This document shows positions 895 through 64,000 of a stretch of 64,000 bases of DNA, in pieces. The notes under the pieces were generated by a model. The model was not told the origin of the DNA. It ran no database searches and was given only the letters and a program-made list of their open reading frames with translations. Origin of the DNA: Euglena gracilis (taxonomy: Eukaryota); NCBI GenBank assembly GCA_039621445.1, contig CP154954.1, positions 32,465,455 to 32,529,454 on the forward strand, given 5' to 3'. The translations under genes were made by a program, and so were the position numbers. Each line of letters opens with the position of its first letter. Within the stretch, counting starts at the first letter, position 1.

Positions 895-1500
895 GTAACA
901 AAATCCCTTTGCTGCCGGACCGTTTTGTGAGCATGCGCAATCAGACACCCATTGTCGGAGTGCGCCTTCAGCGCCCTTGGTCGTCTAGCGGGGGGGGGGG
1001 CTGCCACCCCCCGCCCCCCCCCCCCCCCCAAACAAAATCCCTTTGGTCGTCTAGCGGGGGGGGGGGGGGCTGCCCCCCCCCCCCCCCCGCACCCCCCGCC
1101 CCCCAATAACAAAATCCCTTTGGTGCCGGACCGTTTTGTGTGCATGCGCAATCAGACACGCATTGTCAGAGGGCGCCTTCGGCGCCCTTGGTCGTCTAGC
1201 GGGGGGGGGGGTTACCGCCCCCCCCCCCCGCACCCCCCCCCGCCCCCAATGACAAAATCCCTTTTCTGCCGGACCGTTTTGTGTGCATGCGCAATCAGAC
1301 ACCCATTGTCGCAGGCGCCTTCAGCGCCCTTGGTCGTCTAGCCGGGGGGGGGGGGCTGCGGGGCCCCGCCCCCCCACCTCCCCCCCGCACCTCCCCCCCC
1401 CCCCCAATGACTAAATCCCTTCGCTGCCGGACCGTTTTGTGAGCATCCGCAATCAGACACCGATTGTCGGATGGCGCCTTCGCCCTTGGTCGTCTAACCC
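895..1500. repeat. Minisatellite (ACAAAATCCCTT...TGGTCGTCTAGC + polyG/polyC), about 4 full copies plus a short one
   Basis: Direct tandem copies. Confidence 0.85.
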
Positions 1501-1504
1501 GGAG

Positions 1505-1665
1505 CCCAACCCCAACCCTAACCCGAAACCCTAAACCTAACCCTAACCTTGAACGTAACCCGAACCCTAACCCTAAACCAAACCCTAAACCTTAAACGTA
1601 ACCTGAACCCTAACCCCAACCCTAACCCGAAACCCTAACCCTGTACCAAACCCTAATCCGAACCC
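1505..1665 (+). repeat. Degenerate interstitial telomere-like (CCCTAA)n tract
   Basis: CCCTAA/CCCAAC/CCGAAC hexamer variants; shorter tracts at ~3170-3200 and, reversed, ~5505-5540. Confidence 0.75.
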
Positions 1666-1680
1666 TGGCCCGGTCCTAGG

Positions 1681-4475: not shown

Positions 4476-4589
4476 ACAAATTGTGGCTGAGCCCAGATTT
4501 CAGCCTGAAAACGTGTTCAGGGGCCCCCTTCGGGGGCCCTCCTGCTGAACACGTTTTCAGGCTGAAATCTGGGCTCAGCCACAATTTGT
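4476..4589. repeat. Perfect hairpin, ~44-bp arms
   Basis: ACAAATTGTGGCTGAGCCCAGATTTCAGCCTGAAAACGTGTTCAG and its reverse complement. Confidence 0.9.
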
Positions 4590-26807: not shown

Positions 26808-41244
<14,437 letters not shown>

Positions 41245-44029: not shown

Positions 44030-47000
44030 GCAGATGCGACTTGCAACGGCTGCCATCCAATTTCCCCGAATGGTGGGCGGTGCCCAGGCTCGAAGACCTG
44101 GCTCGGACCTACGAGGACCAGGACAGGCAGGGGAACCGAATGATCCCTGCAGCTGAGCGGCAGAAGGCGAAGGAGGAGTTCTTGGCGCTTGTGCGGGAGG
44201 CGGAGACCGGGATGCAGAACTGGTCGCTGAAGGTGTGCGGCAGGGCATGAGCTTTTGCACATTCTCTGGTCGTCATGACGAGTCGATTGCCAGCAGGAAC
44301 AGGCTCCTTGTCAACCCGGAAGACCCCGGCGGGGAGGGACCCTGTCCCAGTCCCCTCGTCAAGAGGGGGTCTGGGTATGAGCAAGCCCAAGGCACCGAAT
44401 ATTCTCTGGAAAAAAAAATGGCCAACGATGACAGGGAAGTGGGGTCCTGCTGACCTGGGTCCACCATTTCCCAGGGACCAGAAAAAGAAGCCTGATTGGG
44501 AAGTTGGTGTGACGTATTTTTCTTCGTCTTATTCAAAGGCACCGCACATTCCAAGCTGCCACGCCCCTCCCAAATCCCACAAACACTTGACACCAGAGGG
44601 GAGCATGTGCAAAGCAAAAAAAAAATCTCCAGGTGAAAACGAAGATTTGAAATATTGAAGACGGCACAAAACTACAAAAAAATTTCGGGTGCACATTTTG
44701 AGACCAAGGCCGTTGAAGAATAAACAAAAATATGAACAAAATTCACCGATGTGCAGGTAACGCCCCCAGATCCCTCTCCTTCTTCTAATTATCATTATTT
44801 TGGGTTCCTCGCCAGGCTGAACCCAACGCAGTGCAGCCTGCCATCAAGGTTCAAATGGATCCGGAGAGGTGGGAGTGCCACACCCCGAGGCTTCAAGCCG
44901 GAGACTTGCGCCAACGTGATGCCCACCTCGGTGCCGCCGCCCAAGTGCCCAAACGTTTGGGTGCCCGAGCACACAAAGGTGGGTTGGCCCGTGCCCCGCC
45001 ACCGTCACAGGAACGGCAGCCCTCGGCAGAGGACGCCGCGACGGCCCGGGAGCTGGACTCCAAGTTCTGGCAGACCCGGCAGGGGCGGGCACTGAAGCGG
45101 GACCTGGAGCGCCGCGTGCAGGCCCGGTCCAAGCTGGAGCAGCTGTTCTCCAACGAGCAGGGCGGGCGGGAACGGCTGCCCCGCCTCCTTTTTTTGTTGT
45201 GCCACATGCAGAGGGGGCTGCTGCACATTTATGCCATTTGAAGAGGACACCGGAAACCTCATTCTGTCTGGTTCTGGCTCGTACACCGAGAGCACCCTCA
45301 GTGAACTGGTTGCAGCAGCACACGGTTTGATGAATGTCAAAATACAATCACGTGGTGCCCGCAAGACATTTATCTTTGTCAAAAAAAAAGTTGCACCAGC
45401 CTACCCTCATTGCTGGCTGCTTGGCATTTCCCAACCCAGGTTGTGCCTGGGACCAGCGGTCCCACTTGCCCTGGCCTCAGTTCCAAGGATCCCAAGGAGG
45501 CATTCCTGAAGAACCAGTGCCCCCCTGGACTGGAAACCTGGGACCACTTCGGGGAGACAAGGTTCCATCCGCCCGGCGGAAAGATGGTTGTGGCATGGGG
45601 GGCCCTGCGCCGACTACTTCATAAACGACGGATGGTCGTGGACAAAGGCAACGGAGGAGGCGGAGGAGGCGAAACCGAAGCGGAGGTCGGCCAAATCCCG
45701 AGGGGAGGCGGCCGGCGAGGAGGAGGAAGAGGAAGGGGCCCCAGAAGAACCTCCGGAGGCCCCTTCATCCACTGGCCACACCCGAGGTGACTTCGAATGT
45801 TCTTGCTGGTGAGGAAATTTTTTGTTGCAAATTTAATCCTTCATTTTTGTGTTCTGCTCCAGAGATATAGCATGGAAATTGGAGAATTCGGAATTAAGTT
45901 ATGATTTGTTCTGTCATCCGATTATTCTTCTTGTTATTGACATGACACCTCCCACCCCTTTATGGGTTGAGCAGGGGTTGTGTGGAGATTCATACAACTA
46001 TTGTAAGGCTCATATTTCATCACCCTTGGCAAAGCACCAAAAGCTGAAAAAATCTGATAGAAGGGAGAGGAAGGGAAGCCAGCTAAGCAAATTTATGTGA
46101 GGAAGGAGATATGCAATATTTTGTTCTGTTTCTTGTTTGTTTCAAATATGGTGCTCATTTCTTTTCTGGCTAAAAACCCTCTCTCTTTGTTCACCACCTC
46201 ACGTGTGCTTGGGAGGACGAGGAGTTCACCAACAACCAAGAGGTTTTTGAACATGCATATGAAGAGTTCAAGTACCACCACCAAGAAGAGGTATATGTGG
46301 CTTTTTGTTCACAGTGGGCACAGGGGAGAGAGTATGCAAGTTGCATAGGTTGCATCTGTTTTTCATAATACAACTTCTGGATAATTTTCTTGTCTTTTTG
46401 CACAGTTTTCATTTTTTTTGAACAATGAAAAATGTTGGAACGTGTGCATTTTAGGACTTTTTTTGTGTTTTGACCCCCCATTCTCCAAAATTTTCAATGT
46501 CATTTCACAGGAAAATCTTCTACCTCATCAGAATCACATGCATCAAATCAAATCACAGGCACCTTGAAGTTGCATACACCAATTTTTGTATTTGTATTTT
46601 CAGTTGTTGCATCATGAAAATGGGTGAATGCAATTGGGAAGGCAACCGTGGCACTTTGCAAGTTTGCACCACGCTTGCTTTTGGTGGACAATTTCTTCTA
46701 TGGTTCCTTCTTTTTCGTTTTTTTTTTAAATAAATGTGGAAACTCTTTTGTTCATGCTTCCGTGCTTTTTGGTGGATAAAAGTTCGAATGATTTTTCAAA
46801 ATGTGCACTGCGTTGCAGGATGAAAAATGTTGCATAATGAAAAATTTCCCTGGCGCAGATGAAATATTTTCTCCACCAGTCTACCTTAGCGGTGCAAATT
46901 GCCCATTTTTTTCAATTTCTGTGCGTTTGAGGTGCGCGGGTTTCCGCTTACGATACCCCACCGTTTTGTGCTCAAAATTTTGAGAGGATGACACCAGCAC

Positions 47001-50000
47001 AAAAATTTGGGTGGTTTGGGTCCATTTTAGGCATTTTGACAAAATGGCGATTTTGAAAATTTATGGTCGTTTTGGGGGGGTTTGGAAAACACCCCCCTGG
47101 AACGTCCTGAAATTTTAAAAAATAGAAAACAGCTGGAGAACGCCTGGCCTCCGGAGCCCCGGTTGTTTGGCGATGCTGCCGGACCCCCCCTCTGGAGGGG
47201 GGGTGACACGGTGTTGCAGGTGAAGAAGAGGCAACCGCCTAAGCAACCCGCCCATTTTTGAGCCTCTCGTGAGTCCCGAGGAGCAGTGATGGGGAGGTGA
47301 ACAGACAGCACTGCCCAAAAGATGCCATAATTTCTTGGAAGAGATGGTTTAGGCGGTAAACCGTGCAAAATTTGTTTTTGTGATGAAGGGACGCTGCCCT
47401 AACGGAGGGGACTGATTTGGGAATAACATTAAAAATAAGGTTAGGCGGTTTACCGCGTAAAGAAGTGCTGATTCCGCAACGAGGTGTGCGCTGTGTGTGC
47501 TTGCCCCGGGTGTCCTGATTGGTTTACAAGCTCCCCAGCATCCTGCTCCTCCTGGGCTGTGCACCACACCGTATCATTTAGCAGCGCGGGATGACAGTTG
47601 GACCAAGGAAGGCACGGGAGGGAGGGGGGCGCGGTTGCCTGTGCTGCTATCCGGAACAGAGGGGCTGGGAAAGGCTGCAACACCATTCTGGCCATCACAA
47701 GTTCAAGAACTTGTGGCAAAGGTGGACTGAAATGGGATGCGGTTTGAGTGCGTGGTGCCCTTAATTTGTCAGCGCACAAGTTCCCTGCTGATGACACAGC
47801 TGGGCCACGCAAAACTGAACATTTTTTCCCACCTGTCAACTTCTGCTGAGAGATGCTCAAAATTTTTTTGTTTGAGGAGGTGCGGAAACAGAACACAACT
47901 TTTTTTTGGAAGTTTTTGTAAGACCGTTTGCAGGCGGATCTCTGTGCACATGAATGCATGAAACGTTGGAAAGATTCATGCACAGCTGACCAGAATCGGT
48001 GGGGTGTTGTATTTTTATTTTGTGTGGTGGATGGTGCTGTGTCGGGGTGGGGTGTCACACACGGCAAATGAATGATATGGGTGAGTTGGAGATCTTTAGG
48101 CGGAAACCCGCGCAGAAGGGTTTTGAAATGAGAAACGTTCTAGTTTGTGGATGACACGTGGGAGCAGGAAGTGGGAACGCGCTGAATCCTCTAGAAGTGG
48201 GTCATCACGTGAATTTATTAATGAATAAATTTGGGGGAGAGGGAGGAGATTTTGAGACGTTGGTGAATGGTAACAGTGGGCGGTTATCTGCGTATTTCGT
48301 TTTTATTTTGCGCGGGTTTCCGCCCAGATGAGGTTTGGGCGAAAACCTGTGTGGAGCTTGTTGTTGTCCTGATGGGTTGTGGTTGTGATGTTTTGGTGTC
48401 CCGAAGTGTCTGCGTCGGTGGTCGGTGTCGGCGGCACAATGTTTGAAAGTTGGGCGGGACAGGTTGAAAGGAAGCTGTGGCTGTGGCTGAGAGGAAAGGA
48501 AGCTGAAGCTGTGGCTGCGGCGGCGGGACAGCAAGCACCCGACCAGGCGGAAACCTGCCTGGCATTTGAGCAGGACGCGGACACCCTCCTCTCCAATGAG
48601 GAGGCGGTAATGTTCCCCCTGGCTAGCGGTGAAGGTGTCATGTGCAGGGAGAGCAGTGGAACGCATGTGTCAGTTGCCAGGCCAGGTGAGCTGCGGTGGA
48701 GGTGATATTTTGTTACTGTCCCGAAGAACAGCCAAAAACCTGAGGTTGATATCTCAGGAGGAACAAAAGCACCTCCCAGGGCCCTCCACTTGGAACCCAA
48801 CGGTGTTTGTGGTCCAAAATCAGGGTTTGGGGAAGGCTGACGAAGAAGTGATTCAAGATATGGACGGAGAAACGCCTGTTTCAGCAGCTGGTGGCAGCAG
48901 TTGAAAAATTTTGTGGGGTTTTTGGAAGGAGTCCTCCAAGTTCTGAAAAATTCAAGGCCTTTTTAATTGTTTTTTGAAAGAGTTTTACAGCATTTTTCCT
49001 TTGAAAAGCTGCAGTTTTTGCTGAAATTCAGACAAAATGCCCAAAGCACCTCTTTTTTTCTGGCTCTTCTTCCTTCGGGTCCGGCAACATGCTTCCGGAG
49101 GAGGCAACGGTGGTCTCCACAGTTAGAAACCACGTGGAAGGGGGGTAAACCAGAAGGTTGTCATTCTCAACCAACGCCGGGTCGATGTTTGACCCGGTGC
49201 ATTTGGCTTCCATCCATGTAATCAGCCTCAGCACAAGTGTGTCCGGTCTTTTTGGAAACCACCCCTGTTCTGAGTGCCCAAGTTTAAGGGCTGCCCGTCT
49301 CTGCTCGTTTGGTCAAACCCTGCTGGTGCCATCTCCTCTCCCTGGTTTCCATAAACCTCCACCTCTCAAGCTCACCACAATGCGCCAGACACCATTCAGT
49401 TGCAAATTGCCTGGCATCCTGGCAACAAAGTCTGTCGTCCGTGTACTCCGCAAAGCTTCACGCCTGTGACTGGCAATATTTTGCAAACAAACCAGCAGAG
49501 TTCATTTCTAGGGCGGTTTCTATCTTCCACCCCCATCCCATCGTCCACGAATGTTTTGCTTCTTCTGCCCACCCTTAACCCGGCCAGGCGGTTTCCCGCC
49601 TGACTTCTCTGACCTCACAGCTGGTATGCCCCCCCCCTCCATCTCATATGTTGTGTCTGTGCAAACCGCGTTTCCATCCGAACTCATAAAAGGAGACCAG
49701 GCCTCGGTGCTCAAGTGTGACAAGTCAGCTTGTTGGCCTCCTGAGCGGGTACTCTGTTTTTTTGTTTAAGCGGATAACCGCCTACGTCGTCTCTTGGTCC
49801 ACATCCAACCCCATGCCAACTCCTCAATGGTGTTTTTAAATTATTGTGGAAATGGTCAGGCGGTGAACCGCCTGAACCAAAATTGTTGGTGGGGGGAAAG
49901 ACTTTGTGGATTTTGGCTCATACCGGATGCTGCGAGTGCAGAGTTTCATAAATCAGTTGCTGCTTCTCTTTTTTGTTTTTGGGTCGTTTTAAACAGGAAC

Positions 50001-53000
50001 CTTTTTCTATCCAAGTGCGTTCTATACAAATGGGGAGGGCAGGATATCGTCGGGTGGCACCTGCCCACGTCGCCAGGGAGTTCCCCAACTACCATTGGCT
50101 ACGGTGTTACTGTCCCCCAATCCAGAGACCCCAGCAGGCAATGGCGCCTGGCCTGTGCCAGTCTCGACACAGGGAGGGGGGGGTGAGGGCAACACCACCA
50201 GGGCACCACCATTGTTTTTTCTTTACTCCAAGATGGATTTCCGCCTACACCAAGTCGCCAAAAACTCACCACGTGTACACACACAGCAGGCGGATTCCCT
50301 CCTACCAATCGTCAACTGTTTGTGTTATTGTAGCCGATAATCCGTGTACCATTCTTTGTTTTCATTTTTTAGGCGGTAATCCGCGTACAAGTTTATTCTG
50401 CGTGGATATCCGCCCAAACATTTAACTCCGTCGTCTGTCACCTCTTGTTTCGTTTTAGGCGGTTATCCGCATACACTTGCAATATGCATTTGTTTCTCAA
50501 ATACCGTTAATAACATAAATCATGAAGACACAGCCCCGTGTCACACCCATTCAAAGTCAGTGTTTTTCCACCCATTTCAAACAGTTCCAGTACACCCCCC
50601 AACTCACACAATTCACGCACAATCGTAAATCGTTTAAGCGGAATACCGCGCAAAACCAATTCCGGAAAATTTTCGACCAAAGCTGCCACACACCCTTCTC
50701 AACCTAAAATTTTGTGCCTTTTTAGGGGGGTTTCAAAACAGCCAAAAAACGTCAAGAAACACAAAAATTGGTTGGGCAATTTGCGCCGCCTAAGTCTACC
50801 CCTGCTGATTTTGCATGTTGGGAAGTTTCCATTTTCGCTCGTATTTGATGACTCGTCAGAAAAAAATTCCAAGGTAGGGTAAGCAACATGGGTTGCCTGA
50901 GTGCCTTCCAGCTTGAGATTGAAATGCCTCCCCCCCATTTTCTCAATTTGCTCGCTGGACAGGTGGAATCCGCCATATTATTGAAACATTGGCCATCACT
51001 GCCATCATAGGAAGTAGTGTACAGTCTGACCTTTTTCAAAAAAGGTTGGTGAGATGGCTGGCAAATTCTTGAGGGGACAGGCTCAAAGGAAGTTGACAGC
51101 GACAGGAAAGACACAGGGAGAGGAGGTTCACTCCAACTGGAACACCAATGCAAAGCTTTAGTTATTTTCTCCTCTGAACCGTTGTTGGGGATGCCAGCAA
51201 CCTTTTTTTCACTGTTGAGTTTCCTCATTTCCAAATTTAACTTGACAGTCTGAAGTTTAAACTTGAACGTTTAAGGTTTAAGGTTTTTTTTAAACGACCC
51301 AGGGACCCAGCGTGCGCAGATGGGCCTGGCCCGACCAGGCTTCTTTTTAACTTGGAAGACCCCGGGGCCGGGGCCAGACCCCCCAGGGGCTCCTGGGCCA
51401 GAGGCCCAGGTGTGGGTTTCAGTGCGAACCACCAAAATTTTTTGGAAAATGCCCTTAGACGGCCCGATTGGGATGGTCCCCACCAGGGGTCTTAAAAAGA
51501 AGCCTGGGCCCAACCCCTGGGGCCGGCCTGGGTGGGGGCTTTGGGGCAAAAAAAACTGCCCAGGTGACAGTTGATGGGGGGTGCAAATCGGGTGGGGGTG
51601 CAACAAGGCAGCGCAAGGGATGCAAAAATGTGCAAAAGGGTGCAAACTATGAGAAAGGTGCACTTTTTTGAAAGGGCCCAAAGGGCCCAAAACCGACCCT
51701 CCCCGAGGGGTGGGGGGTGTCTGGTATGGGCAGGAACCCCATGCCAAGGCACCCCCGGGCTTGTCAAAAGAAGCCTGTGCGCACCCCTGCACAGTCTGCT
51801 GGGCTGCCTTCCCACTGGGGTCCGCAGGGCTTCACGGAGCAGATCGCGGCGCCACAGATGGGGCCTAGCCTGCGGCGCAAGGAGTCGGCCCGCAAGAAGC
51901 GGCGGGAGCTGCAGGCCGAGAAGGAGGCGGAGCGGGAGCGCACGTTCCAGGAGGAATTGAGCTCAGGCGACCCCTGGAACGTGATTGATGGTGGACTGCG
52001 CTGGCGAGTGTGTGCACGAGGGGGGTTACATATGTGTCTGTCGAGCGGGTATTTGTGGGTTGTGCACATTGCGTGTTGTGTGTTGTGTGTTGTGTGTTGT
52101 GCACATTGCGTGTTGCTGTATGTCTACTATGTTACGTGTGAAATTGAAAAGTTTGTGTATTGCAAGGGTCTCATGGCGCTGCCGCGTGAAGATGCAGAAG
52201 AAGAAAGCATTGCAAGAGAAGTCAGCCCTGCTGAAGGAGATTGCGGGCGCCAAAAGCCGAAAGCCACTCATACAGTGTCCATCTGTATGTATTAATGCGC
52301 ATATTCCTGGACCGCAGAATAAATAATAAAGGTTCATAATTGGCGCATTGGGTTACCTGAAATGGGAAAAAGTGTCATGGGCAATTTATTTCAGCGCCTT
52401 TTTTTTTGTCAATAACAGTGGTCTCCGCAAATGTTTCTGCATTTCAACATGTTGTGGAATGTCCAACGCTACAGAATTTACAGGGGCAAAGGAGAGGAAC
52501 ATGAAATTGTGTGAAGGGCTGCGGTGCACTGGCGGTGGAGCCGGACCCCGAGCCATGCGATGGGTCGCCCCGGCACAGAATGGGTCTCGCCCGCAAGGAC
52601 CGCTTCTCAGCGGACCTCCTGCACAAGATCCGCCACGCCTCCCTGGAGGAGTACGACCAGCTCATGGCGCAGGTGTTCAACGACGACTACTACGAGGAGG
52701 CGGACACCGCGCAGGGCCCCGCTGAGGGCGGAGCAGGGCCCCAGAGGCTGCATGGGCGAAAACGATGGTTCCAGTCATTTGGCACCCGTCCGGGTCATTT
52801 CCTTTTTAGGGGGAACATAGACACCCCGAAGTCATACCCCCCCCCTAATAGTGCTGCGGGGCCAATAGAGCTGCGGGTCCAAATAGTGCTGCACCCCCCG
52901 CCGGATGAAGCGAGCGTCCAATAGTGCTGCACCCCCCCAAATCACAGCAATGTGAAATGCGTAGAAGCTGGTGCAGCCTACTGCAGGCACCGCTTTTAAT

Positions 53001-55502
53001 CCGCAGAGAAGGGAAAGGGGGCAAATTCCCACCAGAACAACTCATAGAAGTCGTCCGAAGATGAACCACACAACCTCACCAGCCTCAGAGAAGGACATTG
53101 AGCAGACAAAAAGGGTGCCTGTGGTGATAGGTCGGGACTAAGAGGCACCCAGTCCAATAGTGCTGCAGGTCCAAATAGTGCTGCACCCCCCACCGCCGGA
53201 GGCGGCCGTCCAATAGAGCTGCGGGTGCAATACTATTTGGGGGGGTTTACACACAAAATTGCGCACAGATATGTCACCCTCATATCAAACGACCACCCTG
53301 TCAAGCGATCATCCCTTCCCTGTTCAGAGAACCCCTTTCAGGAGGGTTTTTCGTGTTTCAGGGACAGGGCGGTCCATAAGGGACGGGAAGTTTTTTTTTT
53401 TTCGTTAAGGACCGCCCCTTAAGGACCGCCCCCCCCGACCAAGGATCGACCGGGACTTGAACGGGGGTCGAAAACCAAAAAGTCGAAAAACGCATTTTTT
53501 GACGCTATGGGCGGATGGGCGATGTTCCAAAACTGCCAGGAATCACTTTTTTTTCCCGAAGTCGACCCGTTTCGGGCAAAATACGGCCACTTTTCGGTCA
53601 TGGATTTTCAAAAAAATTTCCCGGCTGTGCCGGGACGGGATTTTTTTTTTTTTTGCTTAAGGACCGCCCTGTTCAGGGAAGCCGAGTATCCCTCTGCAGC
53701 GATCACCCCCCCCCCCCCAATCAGAGGACAGACAAGGTTGTCTGCTGCGTGCTGAACACTTCAGGTGCATGCTGACTCCTGTCCCGGCGGCACCCTGGCA
53801 GGAATTTCCACCCGGAGGCCGAGGACTGGACAGAGCAGCCGGAGCTCCGCAAACTGCTCGGCACGGATGCGTCGTGGGAGAAGCGCCAGCTCGTGGCATC
53901 TGTGTTCAGCGAGACCCCGACGGCCACGGAGGCCGCAAGCACGCAGGCTGATGGGCCAGCGTTGGCCAGAGCAAAGGTTTGTTTGGATGCTGAAGGAAGG
54001 ATGTGCGTGGGAACGGCTGCCAAATCACGTCCATTTTCAAAAGTGTTATCATGTTGTGCCAACCGTCCCCTACCAAAACTCAGAACTTTCTCCAACGCCA
54101 TTATGAAGATGTTTACCAAACCAAATTCGTCAAGTCTGTGGCAAATGATCTTTCGGATCGCCCTGCCTTAGACCAGAAGGTTTGGACCCCCCAACTGAGC
54201 ACAGGAACGCACGAGGAAAGGGCATTTCCTTGAAAGGCAAAAGTGGAAATGTGGTTTTGAACAAACAGGTGCCAATACAACGAAGGCTCAGCGACACCAG
54301 AAAAAAAATTGATTTCTGGCATCTTTGGAGAGGTGCGCCAATCCACCCAAATCATAGCAAGACTCGGTTCAATTTTACAATTTCCCCTAGTTTTGAGCCC
54401 TGGATGGCAGCTTGGCTTCTCGTGGCATTTTTTTTTGGGGTATGTTCCACTTAAGAATCTCCCTGGTCTGAAGCGAATGCCTGGACAGGGGTGGTAGGTC
54501 ACGGGAGGTGGGGTGGTCGTTGCTTGGGTCGCGGCCGGCCGCGGCACCTGCCTCCCATAAACCAGCCTCCCGTGAGTCCCCATCGGGACTGGATGTCCGG
54601 CGGTGATGGTCCCGCCGTGGCCCCTCCGGGCCCCCACCCTGGCCCCAGCAGCGGCGGCGGCGGGGGCGGAAAGGCGCCGGCCGGGCCGCAGGACTCCGAC
54701 AGCGACAGCGACGGGGACGATGCGGGGCGGCGGCGGCGGCGCACGGTGAGCAAGGAGACGCTGCAGCGGCAGCTGGAGGAGGAGGCCAGGGCAGGGGGGG
54801 GGGGAGGGGCTGGCCGGATTGCAGTCGCCGGGGCCCCACTGGACCTGCTTTGAAGGTCTCTTTTGACGATTTTAGCAAATGGTGGATGCCTGTCGACGTC
54901 AGCTCGCCTTGGGTAATGCAAAATGTGGGTTTATTCTGGTTTCTGACCCCTCCCATGTGAAGACCCCCAGCTTTAAGCAGGATTTCAAGACCCGCATGCA
55001 AAAATCAAATGTCCCCGCACATCGTTTGGGGGTTTCCTTGGAATTTTCCTTTCCTTTCTTCTTTGTAGAAGTTGAAGTGGATATTTTCTCCCACACCAGC
55101 ATTCATGGCCGAGAGGGGTACTTAAAAAAAAAGCTCTCAGCGGCCCTCACACATGGTCTTCCTCTTTGAGGATGGATACAATTTGTGCCAAACCCCCCCA
55201 GTCCTGCCAGAGGTACAGTACACCCAGAAGGAGATAGACGAGCTGGGGTACGAGGATGTCATTGCGGGCGGCACCGTGAAGTGCCGCTTCAAGTACCGCG
55301 GCCATGCCTCGCCCTGGGACTAGTGCGGCTGTATTTGAACCACTGGGTCGTCAACTCACTCGGTTGTTTCAGTCGGAGTGACGGTCTCCCAGTCAGCCGC
55401 TGCTCAACCTCCCCACACCTGGGGCCACACACACGGCGAGGGCGGCGCATGCTCTCAACATCGACCCCATCCGCTTCGAGGGGCTGGACACCACTGACCT
55501 CC
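41635..55502 (+). CDS. KRI1: KRI1 homolog (40S biogenesis factor), multi-exon, 3'-partial. Exons 41635-41790, 42535-42609, 42994-43101, 43420-43595, 44088-44232, 44816-44848, 45011-45154, 45479-45511, 45612-45773, 46213-46290, 51828-51960, 52181-~52253, ~52531-52708, 53803-~53960, ~54590-54783, 55212-55299, 55457-55502
   Basis: Colinear KRI1-like motifs: VDKKYASTLLRRKREQELRLMRQKFG, acidic tract, EAFLKxYFINDGW, EDEEF..FEHAY..KYHHQEE, SLRRKESARKKRRE, KKKALQEKSALLKEIAG, EYDQLMAQVFNDDYY, and the C-terminal domain LGYEDVIAGGTVKCRFKYR/NIDPIRFEGLDTTDL. Confidence 0.88.
43964..44030 (+). repeat. (GACA)n microsatellite
   Basis: Direct observation. Confidence 0.95.
46213..46290 (+). CDS. KRI1: KRI1 exon
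   Basis: EDEEFTNNQEVFEHAYEEFKYHHQEE; GT donor at 46291. Confidence 0.8.
46885..50794. mobile_element. 3.9-kb TIR DNA transposon (CTTAG ends, 5-bp TSD), copy 2
   Basis: Ends CTTAGCGGTGCAAATTGCCC / GGGCAATTTGCGCCGCCTAAG; TSD TCTAC; extra internal blocks relative to copy 1. Confidence 0.88.
51336..51506. mobile_element. hAT-like MITE family D
   Basis: TIR CAGGCTTCTTTTTAA / TTAAAAAGAAGCCTG; TSD GGCCCGAC/GGCCCAAC (7/8). Confidence 0.82.
51828..51960 (+). CDS. KRI1: KRI1 exon
   Basis: ccgcag|; PSLRRKESARKKRRELQAEKEAERERTFQEEL. Confidence 0.82.
52834..53249. mobile_element. MITE-like element with repeated AATAGTGCTGC motifs
   Basis: Imperfect inverted ends CCCCCCCTAATAGTG / TACTATTTGGGGGGG; many internal motif copies. 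Confidence 0.55.
53365..53671. mobile_element. hAT-like MITE family A, copy 2
   Basis: Near-identical to copy 1; 8-bp TSD TTCAGGGA. Confidence 0.92.
55212..55299 (+). CDS. KRI1: KRI1 C-terminal domain exon
   Basis: VQYTQKEIDELGYEDVIAGGTVKCRFKYR. Confidence 0.88.
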
Positions 55503-55568
55503 TGCCAGGGACCCTGCCTCTGTGACCCCTTCGGGGGTCAAACTCGAGATCGAACACAATCTGCGTAC

Positions 55569-58500
55569 CTCTCTCTCTCTCTCTCTCTCTTTCCGCACAC
55601 AGCGGTAAAAGAGCCAGGCGGTTTCGGATCCAGCCGGGCCTTCCTTGTCGATGCCCCCGACGCCCGGCTGGTGGGGGCAGACCGCCTGGTGACGGGGCAC
55701 TCATGTTCCGCGGGTGGGCGAGTCATGGACCCCAAGGGTATGCGGACCCTCAGGGCCACCCACGGCTCCATCCAGGCAGGCGAGATACAGCCCCGTGGGC
55801 ACCCACCTGGAGAGCGGCTCCGCGTGTTGCATGGCCCTCGGGTGCTGCCGTCACCCGAGGAACGGCCCAGGAACTCCGGTTGCCAGGAGCGGGGACCCCG
55901 GGGGCCACTCGCCCCACTCCTTGGCGTGAAGGTGGTCACCACTCTGGGATACTCTGGTCCACGGCCGGCGCCGATTGGGGTCCTGGCACCCCGTCAGCCC
56001 GCCTCCTTCACCCAGAGATGGGCCAGCCTTCCCGGAGCTACAGCCCGCATAGAGCCACTTGCTTCGACCCCAAGCAAGGTGTGGGGTGCCCGACCCGCGA
56101 CTCACCAGGAGGGTAACCGGCTTCACCCACACGTGGCCCTTTCCTCTGCGGGGGCCACTCGCCCCACTCCTTGGCGTGAAGGTGGTCACCACTCTGGGAT
56201 ACTCTGGTCCACGGCCGGCGCCGATTGGGGTCCTGGCCAGGGCGGTCCATAAAGGACGGGAAGTTTTTTTTTTTTCGTTAAGGACCGCCCCTTAAGGACC
56301 GCCCCCCCGACCAAGGATCGACCGGGACTTGAACGGGGGTCGAAAACCAAAAAGTCGAAAAACGCATTTTTTGACGCTATGCGCGGATGGGCGATGTTCC
56401 AAAAGTGACAGGAATCACTTTTTTTCCCGAAGTCGACCCGTTTCGGGCAAAATACGGCCACTTTTCGGTCATGGATTTTCAAAAAAATTTCCCGGCTGTG
56501 CCGGGACGGGATTTTTTTTTTTTTGCTTAAGGACCGCCCTGGTCCTGGCACCCCGTCAGCCCGCCTCCTTCACCCAGAGATGGGCCAGCCTTCCCGGAGC
56601 TACAGCCCGCATAGAGCCACTTGCTTCGACCCCAAGCAAGGTGTGGGGAGCCCGACCCGCGACTCACCAGGAGGGTAACGGGCTTCACCCACACGTGGCT
56701 CTTTCCTCTGTGCCGACTTGCACTGGAGGCTGTGCGGGCGGGACTTTGCGCTCGAGTCCTTGCAGGCCGAGAAGCACCACCTCGGTTGCTGCGTGGGGTG
56801 GCCTAGCTGATGTTTGTAAACCGCGTCAGCTGGCGGGAGCCCATATTCTTTTCGCCGTGGGCGGTGGCGGCGTCGGCTCACCCCAGACTCCGAGCCCCTA
56901 GCCGTCTTGGGCTGTGTGGGGAAGCGCTTCAGTCCCATGCGCCTGGCCTCGAAGGGCTCGCAAGCGCTAGTTGCCCGGAAGGAAGGCCGGGACTTTTGTT
57001 CCACCCGTTGTGGGGTGGCCGCGGTTTCCCGCGTGTCTCTCTCTTTCCGCACACAGCGGTAAAAGAGCCAGGCGGTTTCGGATCCAGCCGGGCCTTCCTT
57101 GTCGATGCCCCCGACGCCCGGCTGGTGGGGGCAGACCGCCTGGTGACGGGGCACTCATGTTCCGCGGGTGGGCGAGTCATGGACCCCAAGGGTATGCGGA
57201 CCCTCAGGGCCACCCACGGCTCCATCCAGGCAGGCGAGATAAAGCCCCGTGGGCACCCACCTGGAGAGCGGCTCTCCGCGTGTTGCATGGCCCTCGGGTG
57301 CTGCCGTCACCCGAGGAACGGCCCAGGAACTCCGGTTGCCAGGAGCGGGGACCCCGGGGGCCACTCGCCCCACTCCTTGGCGTGAAGGTGGTCACCACTC
57401 TGGGATACTCTGGTCCACGGCCGGCGCCGATTGGGGTCCTGGCACCCCGTCAGCCCGCCTCCTTCACCCAGAGATGGGCCAGCCTTCCCGGAGCTACAGC
57501 CCGCATAGAGCCACTTGCTTCGACCCCAAGCAAGGTATGGGGAGCCCGACCCGCGACTCACCAGGAGGGTAACGGGCTTCACCCACACGTGGCTCTTTCC
57601 TCTGTGCCGACTTGCACTGGAGGCTGTGCGGGCGGGACTTTGCGCTCGAGTCCTTGCAGGCCGAGAAGCACCACCTCGGTTGCTGCGTGGGGTGGCCTAG
57701 CTGATGTTTGTAAACCGCGTCAGCTGGCGGGAGCCCATATTCTTTTCGCCGTGGGCGGTGGCGGCGTCGGCTCACCCCGGACTCCGAGCCCCTAGCCGTC
57801 TTGGGCTGTGTGGGGAAGCGCTTCAGTCCCATGCGCCTGGCCTCGAAGGGCTCGCAAGCGCTAGTTGCCCGGAAGGAAGGCCGGGACTTTTGTTCCACCC
57901 GTTGTGGGGTGGCCGCGGTTTCCCGCGTGTCTCTCTCTTTCCGCACACAGCGGTAAAAGAGCCAGGCGGTTTCGGATCCAGCCGGGCCTTCCTTGTCGAT
58001 GCCCCCGACGCCCGGCTGGTGGGGGCAGACCGCCTGGTGACGGGGCACTCATGTTCCGCGGGTGGGCGAGTCGACCCTCGGACCAGGCCATGGGACTGAA
58101 GCGACCCACCACCAGACGGCTAGGGGCTCGGAGTCTGGGGTGAGCCGACGCCGGAACGCCCGGCGGGCATGGCTCGGAGCTCGCGGTCACATCGCCACCA
58201 CCGCAGCCGAGGTGGGCTTCTGGCCTGCACGGACCCGGCCAGTCCGCCCACAGCCTCCGTGCAAGTCGGCACAGAGGAAAGAGCCACTGGGGTGAAGCCC
58301 GACCCTCCTGGTGAGTCGCGGGTGGGCTCCCCCACACTTGCTTGGGGTGGCGGGGCTTTGCGGGCTGTAGCTCGGGAAGCACATCTCTTGAAGGAAGGGC
58401 TAGGGGTGCCAGGACCCAACCGCGCCGTGGCAGAGTGGTGAGCCACCTTCCGCCGGAGTGGGGGCGAGTGGCCCCCGGGGTCCCGCTCCTGGCAACCGGA

Positions 58501-61500
58501 GTTCCTGGGCTGTGGGGACGCGCACCCCGAGGGCCATGCAACACGCAGCCGCTCGGTGGTGCCCACGGGGCTTTTGCCACCCGTGGGTGGCGGGGCCCAT
58601 ACCCTCTCTTTTCCGGACTCGCCCACACAGCGGAAAAGAGCCCCCGTCACCAGCGGTCTGTCCCCCCATGCGGGCCTCGGGGGCTCGCAAGCGCTAGGCC
58701 CGGCTGGAAGGCCGGCTTTTGTTCCACCCGTTGCGGGGGTGGCCGCGGCCCGCGGTCTCCCCCCACAGGCGAGACAAAAGCCCGGCCTTCCTTGGGACTA
58801 GCGCGTGCGAGCCCTTCGAGGCAGGCCTGGTGAAGCGCTTCCCACACGCCCGCGGGTGGGGCGGAGTCTGGGGTACCGACGCCACCACCGCCCACGGCGA
58901 ATGGGCTCCCCACTGACGCGGACTCTGGCCACCCCCGGCGCCGATTGGTCCTGGCCTGCACCCGAGCCACCCGCCCCACAGCCTCCGTGCCAAGTCGGCA
59001 CAGGGAAAGGCCACTTTGGGGTGAAGCCCGACCCTCTGGTGATGGGGTCGGGCTCCCACACCGCTTGGGGTCAAGCAAGGCTCTATGCGGGCTTCACCCA
59101 ACTGGCCACTCTGTGAAGGACGGGGTGCGGGGGTGCGGACTCGCGCCGGCCTTGCAGGCCGAGCCACACCACCTCGGAGTGGGGGGTGGCCTAGCTGATG
59201 TTGTAAACCGCGTCAGCTGGCGGAGCCTCCTTCCTCGGGTGGCGGCAGCACCCGGACCCGAGCCCTCTTGCCGTGGGTGGGGGGCTTCAGCCTGCCATGG
59301 AGCCTGTGGGCCTGGCCTCGAAGGGTCCGCAGTTGCCCGGAAGGAAGGCCCGGAAGGAAGGAACTTTTGTTCCACCCGTTGTGGGGTGGCCGCGGTTTCC
59401 CGCGTGTCTCTCTCTTTCCGCACACAGCGGTAAAAGAGCCAGGCGGTTTCGGATCCAGCCGGGCCTTCCTTGTCGATGCCCCCGACGCCCGGCTGGTGGG
59501 GGCAGACCGCCTGGTGACGGGGCACTCATGTTCCGCGGGTGGGCGAGTCATGGACCCCAAGGGTATGCGGACCCTCAGGGCCACCCACGGCTCCATCCAG
59601 GCAGGCGAGATAAAGCCCCGTGGGCACCCACCTGGAGAGCGGCTCCGCGTGTTGCATGGCCCTCGGGTGCTGCCGTCACCCGAGGAACGGCCCAGGAACT
59701 CCGGTTGCCAGGAGCGGGGACCCCGGGGGCCACTCGCCCCACTCCTTGGCGTGAAGGTGGTCACCACTCTGGGATACTCTGGTCCACGGCCGGCGCCGAT
59801 TGGGGTCCTGGCACCCCGTCAGCCCGCCTCCTTCACCCAGAGATGGGCCAGCCTTCCCGGAGCTACAGCCCGCATAGAGCCACTTGCTTCGACCCGAAGC
59901 AAGGTATGGGGAGCCCGACCCGCGACTCACCAGGAGGGTAACGGGCTTCACCCACACGTGGCTCTTTCCTCCGTGCCGACTTGCACTGGAGGCTGTGCGG
60001 GCGGGACTTTGCGCTCGAGTCCTTGCAGGCCGAGAAGCACCACCTCGGTTGCTGCGTGGGGTGGCCTAGCTGATGTTTGTAAACCGCGTCAGCTGGCGGG
60101 AGCCCATATTCTTTTCGCCGTGGGCGGTGGCGGCGTCGGCTCACCCCGGACTCCGAGCCCCTAGCCGTCTTGGGCTGTGTGGGGAAGCGCTTCAGTCCCA
60201 TGCGCCTGGCCTCGAAGGGCTCGCAAGCGCTAGTTGCCCGGAAGGAAGGCCGGGACTTTTGTTCCACCTGTTGTGGGGTGGCCGCAGTTTCCCGCGTGTC
60301 TCTCTCTTTTCCGCAGACAGCGGTAAAGCAGCCAGGCGGTTTCGGATCCAGCCGGGCCTTCAGTGTCGATGCCCCCGACGCCCAGCTGGTGGGGGCAGAC
60401 CGCCTGGTGACGGGGCACTCATGTTCCGCGGGTGGGCGAGTCATGGACCCCAAGGGTATGCGGACCCTCAGGGCCACCCACGGCTCCATCCAGGCAGGCG
60501 AGATAAAGCCCCGTGGGCACCCACCTGGAGAGCGGCTCCGCGTGTTGCATGGCCCTCGGGTGCTGCCGTCACCCGGGGAACGGCCCAGGAACTCCGGTTG
60601 CCAGGAGCGGGGACCCCGGGGGCCACTCGCCCCACTCCTTGGCGTGAAGGTGGTCACCACTTTGGGATACTCTGGTCCACGGCCGGCGCCGATTGGGGTC
60701 CTGGCACCCCGTCAGCCCGCCTCCTTCACCCAGAGATGGGCCAGCCTTCCCGGAGCTACAGCCCGCATAGAGCCACTTGCTTCGACCCCAAGCAAGGTAT
60801 GGGGAGCCCGACCCGCGACTCACCAGGAGGGTAACGGGCTTCACCCACACGTGGCTCTTTCCTCTGTGCCGACTTGCACTGGAGGCTGTGCGGGCGGGAC
60901 TTTGCGCTCGAGTCCTTGCAGGCCGAGAAGCACCACCTCGGTTGCTGCGTGGGGTGGCCTAGCTGATGTTTGTAAACCGCGTCAGCTGGCGGGAGCCCAT
61001 ATTCTTTTCGCCGTGGGCGGTGGCGGCGTCGGCTCACCCCGGACTCCGAGCCCCTAGCCGTCTTGGGCTGTGTGGGGAAGCGCTTCAGTCCCATGCGCCT
61101 GGCCTCGAAGGGCTCGCAAGCGCTAGTTGCCCGGAAGGAAGGCCGGGACTTTTGTTCCACCCGTTGTGGGGTGGCCGCGGTTTCCCGCGTGTCTCTCTCT
61201 TTCCGCACACAGCGGTAAAAGAGCCAGGCGGTTTCGGATCCAGCCGGCCCTTCCTTGTCGATGCCCCCGACGCCCGGCTGGTGGGGGCAGACCGCCTGGT
61301 GACGGGGCACTCATGTTCCGCGGGTGGGCGAGTCATGGACCCCAAGGGTATGCGGACCCTCAGGGCCACCCACGGCTCCATCCAGGCAGGCGAGATAAAG
61401 CCCCGTGGGCACCCACCTGGAGAGCGGCTCCGCGTGTTGCATGGCCCTCGGGTGCTGCCGTCACCCGAGGAACGGCCCAGGAACTCCGGTTGCCAGGAGC

Positions 61501-64000
61501 GGGGACCCCGGGGGCCACTCGCCCCACTCCTTGGCGTGAAGGTGGTCACCACTCTGGGATACTCTGGTCCACGGCCGGCGCCGATTGGGGTCCTGGCACC
61601 CCGTCAGCCCGCCTCCTTCACCCAGAGATGGGCCAGCCTTCCCGGAGCTACAGCCCGCATAGAGCCACTTGCTTCGACCCCAAGCAAGGTATGGGGAGCC
61701 CGACCCGCGACTCACCAGGAGGGTAACGGGCTTCACCCACACGTGGCTCTTTCCTCTGTGCCGACTTGCACTGGAGGCTGTGCGGGCGGGACTTTGCGCT
61801 CGAGTCCTTGCAGGCCGAGAAGCACCACCTCGGTTGCTGCGTGGGGTGGCCTAGCTGATGTTTGTAAACCGCGTCAGCTGGCGGGAGCCCATATTCTTTT
61901 CGCCGTGGGCGGTGGCGGCGTCGGCTCACCCCGGACTCCGAGCCCCTAGCCGTCTTGGGCTGTGTGGGGAAGCGCTTCAGTCCCATGCGCCTGGCCTCGA
62001 AGGGCTCGCAAGCGCTAGTTGCCCGGAAGGAAGGCCGGGACTTTTGTTCCACCCGTTGTGGGGTGGCCGCGGTTTCCCGCGTGTCTCTCTCTTTCCGCAC
62101 ACAGCGGTAAAGAGCCAGGCGGTTTCGGATCCAGCCGGGCCTTCCTTGTCGATGCCCCCGACGCCCGGCTGGTGGGGGCAGACCGCCTGGTGACGGGGCA
62201 CTCATGTTCCGCGGGTGGGCGAGTCATGGACCCCAAGGGTATGCGGACCCTCAGGGCCACCCACGGCTCCATCCAGGCAGGCGAGATAAAGCCCCGTGGG
62301 CACCCACCTGGAGAGCGGCTCCGCGTGTTGCATGGCCCTCGGGTGCTGCCGTCACCCGAGGAACGGCCCAGGAACTCCGGTTGCCAGGAGCGGGGACCCC
62401 GGGGGCCACTCGCCCCACTCCTTGGCGTGAAGGTGGTCACCACTCTGGGATACTCTGGTCCACGGCCGGCGCCGATTGGGGTCCTGGCACCCCGTCAGCC
62501 CGCCTCCTTCACCCAGAGATGGGCCAGCCTTCCCGGAGCTACAGCCCGCATAGAGCCACTTGCTTCGACCCCAAGCAAGGTATGGGGAGCCCGACCCGCG
62601 ACTCACCAGGAGGGTAACGGGCTTCACCCACACGTGGCTCTTTCCTCTGTGCCGACTTGCACTGGAGGCTGTGCGGGCGGGACTTTGCGCTCGAGTCCTT
62701 GCAGGCCGAGAAGCACCACCTCGGTTGCTGCGTGGGGTGGCCTAGCTGATGTTTGTAAACCGCGTCAGCTGGCGGGAGCCCATATTCTTTTCGCCGTGGG
62801 CGGTGGCGGCGTCGGCTCACCCCGGACTCCGAGCCCCTAGCCGTCTTGGGCTGTGTGGGGAAGCGCTTCAGTCCCATGCGCCTGGCCTCGAAGGGCTCGC
62901 AAGCGCTAGTTGCCCGGAAGGAAGGCCGGGACTTTTGTTCCACCCGTTGTGGGGTGGCCGCGGTTTCCCGCGTGTCTCTCTCTTTTCCGCACACAGCGGT
63001 AAAAGAGCCAGGCGGTTTCGGATCCAGCCGGGCCTTCCTTGTCGATGCCCCCGACGCCCGGCTGGTGGGGGCAGACCGCCTGGTGACGGGGCACTCATGT
63101 TCCGCGGGTGGGCGAGTCATGGACCCCAAGGGTATGCGGACCCTCAGGGCCACCCACGGCTCCATCCAGGCAGGCGAGATAAAGCCCCGTGGGCACCCAC
63201 CTGGAGAGCGGCTCCGCGTGTTGCATGGCCCTCGGGTGCTGCCGTCACCCGAGGAACGGCCCAGGAACTCCGGTTGCCAGGAGCGGGGACCCCGGGGGCC
63301 ACTCGCCCCACTCCTTGGCGTGAAGGTGGTCACCACTCTGGGATACTCTGGTCCACGGCCGGCGCCGATTGGGGTCCTGGCACCCCGTCAGCCCGCCTCC
63401 TTCACCCAGAGATGGGCCAGCCTTCCCGGAGCTACAGCCCGCATAGAGCCACTTGCTTCGACCCCAAGCAAGGTATGGGGAGCCCGACCCGCGACTCACC
63501 AGGAGGGTAACGGGCTTCACCCACACGTGGCTCTTTCCTCTGTGCCGACTTGCACTGGAGGCTGTGCGGGCGGGACTTTGCGCTCGAGTCCTTGCAGGCC
63601 GAGAAGCACCACCTCGGTTGCTGCGTGGGGTGGCCTAGCTGATGTTTGTAAACCGCGTCAGCTGGCGGGAGCCCATATTCTTTTCGCCGTGGGCGGTGGC
63701 GGCGTCGGCTCACCCCGGACTCCGAGCCCCTAGCCGTCTTGGGCTGTGTGGGGAAGCGCTTCAGTCCCATGCGCCTGGCCTCGAAGGGCTCGCAAGCGCT
63801 AGTTGCCCGGAAGGAAGGCCGGGACTTTTGTTCCACCCGTTGTGGGGTGGCCGCGGTTTCCCGCGTCTCTCTCTCTCTTTCCGCACACAGCGGTAAAGGA
63901 GCCAGGCGGTTTCGGATCCAGCCGGGCCTTCCTTGTCGATGCCCCCGACGCCCGGCTGGTGGGGGCAGACCGCCTGGTGACGGGGCACTCATGTTCCGCG
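55569..64000. repeat. Tandem array of a GC-rich ~892-bp unit inside a KRI1 intron; continues past the window end
   Basis: Landmark CTCTCTTTCCGCACACAGCGG recurs at ~55585, 57040, 57933, 59409, 60302, 61195, 62087, 62980, 63873; units near-identical. Confidence 0.96.
56238..56541. mobile_element. hAT-like MITE family A, copy 3 (inside the satellite)
   Basis: 8-bp TSD GTCCTGGC; empty site present in the other satellite units. Confidence 0.95.

Follow-up and report, generated by a model that had tools for sequence, protein, structure and literature searches.

What is the tandem array at the right end of a 64,000-nt stretch of the Euglena gracilis genome (hereafter the window), and how could it have arisen? 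Between positions 55569 and 64000 an 892-bp unit with a GC content of ~67% is repeated head to tail: six copies are complete and uninterrupted, another is interrupted, and two are partial (Table 1). The full copies are 98.9-99.8% identical to copy 6, which served as the reference. The array continues up to the window end; its right boundary is situated beyond it, as would be a target duplication if one exists. An earlier description made from the letters alone, here called the sequence-only reading, had proposed a head-to-tail array of a ~892-nt unit. The unit and all 13 motif strings named for it were recovered, whereas the array itself is not a clean one: copy 1 is rearranged and carries a MITE, and a scrambled block separates copies 3 and 4.

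Table 1 Features of the array and its surroundings (positions in the window)
Feature	Position	Strand	Remarks
KRI1-like host-gene exon, probable	55210..55302	+	PF12936 (start of Kri1_C), E 0.025, profile 9-29 of 89
(CT)11 tract, left end of array	55569..55590	+	11 units counted; putative role
Terminal copy 1	55584..57037	-	unit 1-565, then 316-892; MITE-interrupted
MITE inside copy 1	56238..56541		304 bp; terminal inverted repeats; 8-bp target duplication
Full copy 2	57038..57931	-	894 bp, 99.7%
Partial copy 3	57932..58072	-	unit 1-141; hammerhead retained
Scrambled block	58073..59408		72-77% match to unit, mostly inverted
Full copies 4-6	59409-60300, 60301-61193, 61194-62085	-
Full copies 7-8	62086-62976, 62977-63869	-
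Partial copy 9	63872..64000	-	truncated by window end
Type III hammerhead motif, example copy	62115..62190	-	GUC, C17 at 62181
Other hammerhead copies	55614-55689, 57068-57143, 57962-58037, 59439-59514, 61224-61299, 63008-63083, 63902-63977	-
Internal GA tract, unit junction	62085..62092	-	last bases unpaired in prediction
35-nt double hairpin	62048..62082	-	directly 3' (RNA sense) of GA tract

The unit had been called non-coding on the strength of 1-2-nt indels between copies. The assignment holds but that argument is weak, with four indels among seven array sequences, which may moreover be assembly errors. It is better supported because Pfam profiles matched none of the 13 frames of the array region (87 frames were scanned) and two long frames lack homologues: a plus-strand frame of 327 aa that spans the junction, between the 95th and 99th percentile of shuffled sequences, has none, and a 184-aa minus-strand frame has none among longer proteins, a weak test. 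Nothing in the 64-kb window reached the Rfam gathering score. The ribozyme scan proposed in the sequence-only reading returned no ribozyme family; the only matches were to bacterial sRNA families at E 1-9 and were dismissed as chance. The SINE-like origin once considered gained no support, as the tRNA search and Rfam both came back empty. Motifs of snoRNA clusters, RNase MRP, SRP and HDV-like folds, compared by eye and by a motif count, did not fit.

A descriptor search identified a hammerhead-shaped motif of type III on the minus strand, intact in eight of the nine copies and mutated in copy 5. None of 3000 shuffled units matched the descriptor, looser stem lengths included, and a single weak match lies outside the array (46489-46554). 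The helices follow the order III-I-II-III with stem III open, and comprise 9 bp (III), 7 bp (I) and 3 bp (II). The core reads U3 C4 G5 A6 C7 A8 A9 and G12 A13 A14 A15.1, in a position numbering consistent with the published one. The NUH triplet, G5, A6, A9, G12, A13, A14 and the pairs A15.1-U16.1 and G10.1-C11.1 are all as in the consensus. Positions 3 and 8 retain Watson-Crick pairing, with U3-A8 in place of C3-G8; the canonical U4 is absent, and all eight intact copies have C4. The sequence-only reading had reported no canonical hammerhead core. This is correct insofar as CUGANGA does not occur, but a variant core on the minus strand had escaped it, and its two nested stems, the strings of which are indeed present, are parts of this type III motif.

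The two core changes differ in their expected consequences. According to PMC3088659, the U3-A8 pair is natural and active, and it has also been found in Penelope-like elements (PMC4209133), whereas U4C is described in the former source as lowering in vitro activity considerably. A search of 121 bases with Rfam hammerhead models did not match the motif, even when E values as high as 10 were allowed. A paralogous 195-nt contig from sequencing run X1 matches the array only at 61225-61297, that is, over the motif between and including the two strands of stem III. It has the canonical U at position 4; this is a single contig of depth 3.2, and its U4 may be an error.

A second peculiarity concerns the loops. 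Loops I and II contain 10 complementary bases, a complementarity reached in 24 of 200,000 random pairs of segments from the unit, with the real pair counted. In the minimum-energy nested fold (-43.0 kcal/mol) the loop-loop helix is formed and the core is buried; forcing stems I and III gave -34.5 kcal/mol, placing the inactive fold 8.5 kcal/mol lower. Stems I and II had a probability of 0.00 in this model, which excludes pseudoknots, and the pairs of stem III reached 0.88-1.0 in the predicted monomer. Self-cleavage of the motif is doubtful because of the U4C change, the lower energy of the inactive fold and the failure of Rfam models to match it, and we would give measurable cleavage an even chance. 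We think that the ribozyme would be slow or mostly switched off, because the 10-bp helix between loops I and II can replace stems I and II.

The unit as a whole had been called highly self-complementary, and folding it as linear and circular RNA against shuffles had been proposed. The description applies to the minus strand, and there only moderately. The minus strand folded better than its shuffles in linear (z = -2.64) and circular form (z = -3.9, equalled by 0 of 45 shuffles), whereas the plus strand did not (z = -1.16 and -1.3, the latter equalled by 4 of 45). With the hammerhead removed, the values were -3.3 (0 of 60) for the minus and -1.1 (7 of 60) for the plus strand. Perfect stems of at least 7 bp numbered 16, compared to 9.2 ± 3.1 in shuffles (7 of 200), and those of at least 6 bp 35, compared to 31 (52 of 200). 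The paired fractions (plus and minus strand) were 0.70 and 0.67 versus 0.68 and 0.66 in shuffles, and none of the 120-nt sliding folds had z < -2.4.

The ends of the units provide a clue to their multiplication. As the sequence-only reading had noticed, the array starts at a long CT tract, (CT)11, and each intact internal junction retains a short one, (CT)4 to (CT)6. The (CT)11 tract merges with the unit's own GA tract, which in RNA sense lies ~90-100 nt 3' of the predicted cut. In the predicted monomer, part of the GA tract is paired in a hairpin; of the seven bases that follow, six have unpaired probabilities of 0.5-1.0, and one more base reaches 1.0. The array terminates at a GA/CT tract with the polarity expected for target-primed reverse transcription, and the (CT)11 tract appears, judging from this layout, to be the genomic target and the primer of reverse transcription. 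That the GA tract might be the purine tract of an LTR element was considered but rejected, since the end of the array falls within it. The 35-nt double hairpin is present eight times in the window, every time within the array, and is a candidate recognition or "tail" element. It also occurs in contigs of 511 and 1597 nt from runs X1 and X4 that are otherwise different.

The unit is probably a young non-autonomous retrozyme-like element, and most likely relies on Penelope-like elements for its reverse transcriptase and endonuclease. A retrozyme-like nature had already been suggested from the letters, and it is now backed by the minus-strand hammerhead in eight of nine copies, the minus-only folding and the GA/CT polarity of the end. 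In the proposed mechanism, minus-strand transcription would read through several units, and a nicked genomic (CT)n end would pair with the unpaired GA tract and prime cDNA synthesis internally. The template would have to be continuous across the cut, that is, an uncut multimer or a religated circle, because priming at this site on a linear monomer with both ends cleaved would yield only ~100 nt of cDNA. In a religated circle, the 9-bp stem III would keep the ends together. Copying of such a continuous template would produce head-to-tail copies, and later DNA-level duplication and the MITE would have altered the locus. Accumulation of circular RNA is possible, though we rather doubt it. No autonomous partner was found in the window, where two long frames are without homologues.

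The most serious alternative is that a single retro-inserted copy, or a partial dimer, grew into a satellite at the DNA level, by unequal exchange or slippage; the hammerhead would be a passive relic, and RNA would have had no role in producing this array. Copy 1 would fit such a history, with 250 bp duplicated internally and a greater divergence than the inner copies show (five substitutions in its first part compared to the other copies), and C4 together with the competing fold suggests low ribozyme activity. However, each substitution in copies 2 and 4-8 is confined to a single copy, without the shared subsets expected from stepwise exchange, although polishing could erase these. Furthermore, the unit consensus is the dominant sequence in runs X1 and X4, and expansion leaves the CT-tract end unexplained and still needs a retro-insertion. 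We regard this scenario as unlikely.

A smaller probability attaches to the possibility that most of the array's length was created during assembly, with reads from other loci inflating and homogenising what had been a short insertion containing an inversion. The scrambled block gives it some substance, being a 1.3-kb, deletion-rich mixture of both strands inside the array. In its longest alignment to the unit, 325 bases are deleted, 35 inserted and 61 substituted, and the block corresponds to ~1.7 inverted units compressed by many 1-3-nt deletions, with short forward words intermixed. From this pattern, the block probably reflects an inversion or fold-back that the consensus renders wrongly, and the assembly may have distorted the copy number. 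The near identity of the inner copies points in the same direction. Against this, contigs spanned the unit junction in three of the four runs examined, which are independent, and copy 1 has its own MITE with a target duplication. Moreover, an assembly product would alter the copy number and not the nature of the unit.

Among the sequencing runs listed, 16 of 24 hold at least 94% of the unit's words; runs X17 and X18 contain near-identical partial pieces rather than diverged relatives. Closed contigs of 922 nt were found in runs X1 and X4, one of them from a leaf-litter metatranscriptome with a depth of 33. Tandem DNA, a tandem transcript and a circle would all give such closed contigs equally well; strand, ends and circularity cannot be read from contigs, and that X1 is RNA is only a guess. 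The leaf-litter run may contain the host or be contaminated with it, and DNA may be present in RNA libraries. These contigs, and the type III hammerheads with loop pseudoknots described for delta-like circles in PMC7936874, could be taken to favour an endogenised viroid-like circular RNA that replicates from RNA to RNA and was captured as a concatemer. However, the type III descriptor matches one polarity only (other ribozyme classes were checked via Rfam alone), the fold is branched and not rod-like with an ordinary paired fraction, the sequence is identical across runs without quasispecies variation, and the unit also occurs in runs guessed to be DNA. Scans of viral contigs with two patterns returned no match, and we consider a viroid-like origin very improbable. 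Four metagenome pattern matches were discarded upon inspection as chance because their flanks do not pair as stems.

The host gene around the array was traced by two profile matches, PF12936 (Table 1) and PF05178 (52505-52921, E 5e-4), both under the Pfam cut-offs. Judging from these positions, the array probably occupies, in antisense orientation, an intron further downstream in a KRI1-like gene. Euglenids have tandem clusters for several non-coding RNAs, and an array that is tandem, apparently transcribed and probably located inside a ribosome-biogenesis gene might recall host RNA genes of the snoRNA, snRNA, SL, SRP or MRP type, but we give this next to no credence in view of the lack of any Rfam family, tRNA, perfect C box or Sm-like site, the antisense orientation, and the fact that the hammerhead is the part most exactly shared with the paralogue.

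How does a retrozyme-like element of this kind compare with known systems? Retrozymes have been described with type III hammerheads in plant LTR elements or with type I hammerheads in animal tandem repeats. Animal non-LTR retrozymes, for which a non-autonomous origin from Penelope-like elements has been proposed (PMC7229834; bioRxiv 10.64898/2026.07.22.740005), resemble the unit in being non-coding, head to tail and free of LTRs, with a hammerhead in each unit; the feature by which they are recognised, two or more successive hammerhead-bearing units in a tandem repeat that does not code for protein, is present in the array. They differ in having type I motifs, units of 150-450 bp and a GC content below 50%, compared to a type III variant core, 892 bp and 67% in Euglena, and in that their cleavage and circles have been demonstrated. 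Plant LTR retrozymes (PMC4918200) share type III, 600-1000 nt between cuts, a GC content above 55% and the lack of coding capacity. However, they are mostly dimeric, depend on Ty3/gypsy elements and have LTRs, a primer site, a purine tract and 4-bp duplications, whereas the Euglena array is a long tandem without an LTR-internal-LTR structure and ends inside a GA tract at a microsatellite. The unit therefore mixes plant and animal retrozyme features and extends them to a euglenid; our literature search, which covered main texts of mostly freely available papers, found no report of such an element in euglenids.

Penelope-like elements offer further parallels. Non-autonomous Chlamys elements such as MRC1 (PMC8557442) are multicopy and head to tail, with microsatellite targets, inverted neighbours and a 30-40-bp tail, and head-to-tail insertion at a microsatellite is seen here at one end of the locus, at (CT)11. 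Most Chlamys/Naiad elements lack canonical hammerheads, and the main text of that paper does not mention Euglena. For Poseidon of Anolis (PAc, PMC11167929), reverse transcription starts internally at a stem-loop of mostly uncut RNA, 85-92 nt past the hammerhead cut by subtraction from the published figures, and the hammerhead cleaves only once protein is added. PAc is autonomous and its start site is not homologous to its AT-rich target, whereas pairing of a CT primer with a GA template is proposed for Euglena. As for the motif, the accessible parts of PMC3088659 and PMC7936874 contain U3-A8 covariation, a viroid U4C and Watson-Crick contacts between stems I and II as separate variants with contacts of 4-6 bp; the Euglena motif combines U3-A8 with C4 and has 10 complementary bases and a competing nested helix.

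The layout forces a testable statement, namely that with priming on the GA tract full-length copies can only come from uncut or religated RNA, and it is relevant to the still unsettled function of hammerheads in Penelope-like elements. As a tentative and, on present evidence, unlikely extension, the unit could represent a third kind of retrozyme, tandem and Penelope-dependent, with a type III hammerhead in which loop pairing over a full helical turn acts as an off-switch. The RNA, as a multimer or a circle, would stay continuous until a partner protein binds and would be copied repeatedly from the microsatellite primer on the GA tract, and plant and animal retrozyme features would be united in a euglenozoan. 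If true, such an abundant natural element could show whether circular RNA serves as a template for Penelope-type enzymes. With two core changes and 10 complementary bases in its loops, the 76-nt motif is inexpensive to assay.

The MITE in copy 1 has further copies in the window, at 19400-19713 and 53365-53671, each with its own 8-bp duplication; we take the 304-bp copy within the array to be hAT-like.

The unit of 892 bp (GC ~67%) is repeated head to tail in the array, which starts on the left with a (CT)11 tract, and 4-6 CT units are kept at intact junctions. When copy 61194-62085 was compared with the window by BLAST, five further full copies without interruption aligned at 98.9-99.8% identity, and in addition a terminal copy that is interrupted and two that are partial. 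The sequence-only reading had correctly described the tandem arrangement and its (CT)n start, but the array has irregularities. In copy 1, unit positions 1-565 are followed by 316-892, and a MITE of 304 bp, flanked by an 8-bp target duplication, is inserted in this second part. Furthermore, a scrambled block matches ~1.7 inverted units at 73%, with scattered forward words mixed in (325 deleted, 35 inserted and 61 substituted bases); judged from its sequence, the block is probably an error of the consensus at an inversion or fold-back. The substitutions in inner copies are all private, which fits a single copying burst; polishing could give the same pattern.

The same reading had reported no canonical hammerhead core, but the two nested stems that it flagged are pieces of a type III hammerhead fold on the minus strand, whose variant core it had overlooked. 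Our motif descriptor left position 4 free and allowed any Watson-Crick 3-8 pair; these relaxations were picked after the motif had been seen, and they make the null wider. Of the nine copies that lie outside the scrambled block, the relaxed descriptor matched all but the mutated copy 5, and it matched none of 3000 shuffled units. Between loops I and II, 10 bases are complementary, a value reached by 24 of 200,000 random pairs of segments from the unit, the real pair included. A 195-nt contig from the public sequencing run X1 matches the unit only at 61225-61297, that is, at the motif itself, with seven differences, and provides independent support for the motif. One of the listed differences makes position 4 the canonical U (depth 3.2; the letter may be an error). 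According to PMC3088659, hammerheads with a U3-A8 pair occur in nature and are active, while those with U4C are considerably less active in vitro but still allow viroid infection; U3-A8 is also described in Penelope-like elements (PMC4209133). The Rfam hammerhead models gave the motif no score. We regard it as hammerhead-like and as a candidate ribozyme. The descriptor matched once elsewhere in the window, probably by chance.

Like the lack of an Rfam score, the best pseudoknot-free fold of the motif (-43.0 kcal/mol) speaks against activity: the two loops pair with each other in a nested helix, and the core is buried. With stems I and III forced, the fold reaches -34.5 kcal/mol. Since stem I is the best fold for prefixes of 38-54 nt, the active form could arise during transcription. 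The loop pairing may be a kissing contact or may serve to switch the ribozyme off, and the energies agree with a switch without proving it.

The whole unit, previously called highly self-complementary, is moderately structured, and on one strand only. The minus strand beats shuffles in linear (z = -2.64) and circular folding (-3.9; 0 of 45 shuffles as good), also with the hammerhead removed (-3.3; 0 of 60), whereas the plus strand does not (-1.16; -1.3, 4 of 45; and -1.1, 7 of 60, respectively). The share of paired bases is unremarkable, and the fold branches instead of forming a rod. Stems of at least 7 bp are enriched ~1.7-fold (7 of 200 shuffles), and stems of at least 6 bp are not enriched over shuffles. 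The proposed Rfam ribozyme scan matched no family, nor did searches with the other Rfam families and for tRNAs, and the reading frames had neither a Pfam match nor a homologue. One frame, of 327 aa, is unusual when set against shuffles (95th-99th percentile) and likewise lacks homologues.

Motif polarity and folding would make the minus strand the RNA. In RNA terms, the left end of the array is a 3' end that falls within the GA tract. This tract is predicted to be partly unpaired and follows the predicted cut at a distance of ~90-100 nt on its 3' side. A genomic (CT)n end may pair with this tract and prime cDNA. Since a monomer cut at both ends gives only ~100 nt of cDNA, full copies would need a template continuous across the cut. 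This could be a multimer that stays uncut, or a circle in which stem III keeps the ends together (pair probabilities of 0.88-1.0 in the predicted fold). The geometry is the same in the Penelope-like element of the anole: according to PMC11167929, initiation takes place internally, at a stem-loop that lies 111-118 nt into the ORF, and the hammerhead cut is at 26 nt; the RNA used as substrate is mainly uncut, and it is cleaved only when protein is present. For Chlamys, PMC8557442 describes head-to-tail arrays of non-autonomous elements and, for the clade, a preference for microsatellites and frequent inverted copies. Because of this geometry and these habits, we read the unit as probably being a non-autonomous, retrozyme-like element that depends on Penelope; an autonomous partner was not found in this analysis. 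In a bolder reading, which we consider unlikely, the element is a type III retrozyme with a switch, and its circular form is copied from a primer provided by a microsatellite. The retrozyme-like interpretation in the sequence-only reading gains partial support from the type III motif, the above-shuffle folding of the minus strand and the array end in the GA/CT tract, with the ribozyme itself a candidate.

Animal non-LTR retrozymes resemble the unit in its proposed working mode, but the unit departs from them in hammerhead type, size and GC (PMC7229834; bioRxiv 10.64898/2026.07.22.740005). Plant LTR retrozymes share these three features with the unit, but their LTR layout is absent from it (PMC4918200, PMC7761336). 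In our literature search, no description of elements of this kind from euglenids came up, and the word 'ribozyme' is absent from the main text of a Euglena genome paper and of an eccDNA preprint.

Sixteen of the 24 listed runs, including runs guessed to be DNA, contain at least 94% of the sampled unit words; in one of these, the contigs add up to only 2 million letters, a hint of high copy number. Four runs (X1, X4, X17 and X18) were compared with the unit in detail. X1 and X4 contain a closed contig of 922 nt with the same sequence as the array consensus, which fits a circle, tandem DNA or a tandem transcript, the strand not being given by contigs. A contig of run X17 spans the unit junction, and X18 contains two inner pieces. 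X4 is a leaf-litter metatranscriptome in which the whole unit, in its consensus form, reaches a depth of 33; this may reflect presence of the host, contamination or abundant RNA. Other contigs of X1 and X4 share a 35-nt double hairpin next to the GA tract but differ beyond it, and some contigs of X1 share inner blocks, so that, judged by these contigs, there are related but distinct elements.

Positions and properties of the array, its motif and neighbouring elements
Feature	Position	Strand	Properties
Array	55569-64000
Scrambled block	58073-59408
Stem III		minus	9 bp, ends in GUC
Stem I		minus	7 bp
Core		minus	U3 C4 G5 A6 C7 A8 A9
Stem II		minus	3 bp, G-C closed, then G12 A13 A14 A15.1
Other descriptor match	46489-46554	minus	canonical CUGAUGA core; GU-rich weak stems (4, 3, 4 bp)
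327-aa ATG frame	60966-61946	plus	longer than one unit, crosses junction
MITE copies	19400-19713, 53365-53671, 56238-56541		304-314 bp, 95-97% identical, perfect 8-bp target duplication each
KRI1-like short exons	51830-55510
2.6-kb element, two copies (86-91%)	37241-39841, 46885-50795		~25-bp terminal inverted repeats; second copy with two insertions, apparent short target duplication
Telomere-like hexamer repeat	1494-1666		degenerate, 26 copies
Palindromic or inverted-repeat elements	4476-4589, 6946-7028, 22847-23268, 20618-21004		probably further MITE families

Short exons upstream of the array resemble a KRI1 orthologue, with weak Pfam matches in the correct order to Kri1 (E 5e-4) and Kri1_C (E 0.025, positions 9-29 of 89). 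From these matches, the array would be intronic, within a KRI1-like gene and in antisense orientation to it. The intron after ~55300 has, by eye, complementary ends, which we take to be like those of euglenid nonconventional introns. One of the three MITE copies (56238-56541) is inside the retroelement, and one is probably in a KRI1 intron. The telomere-like repeat lies within a GC-rich tandem repeat cluster.
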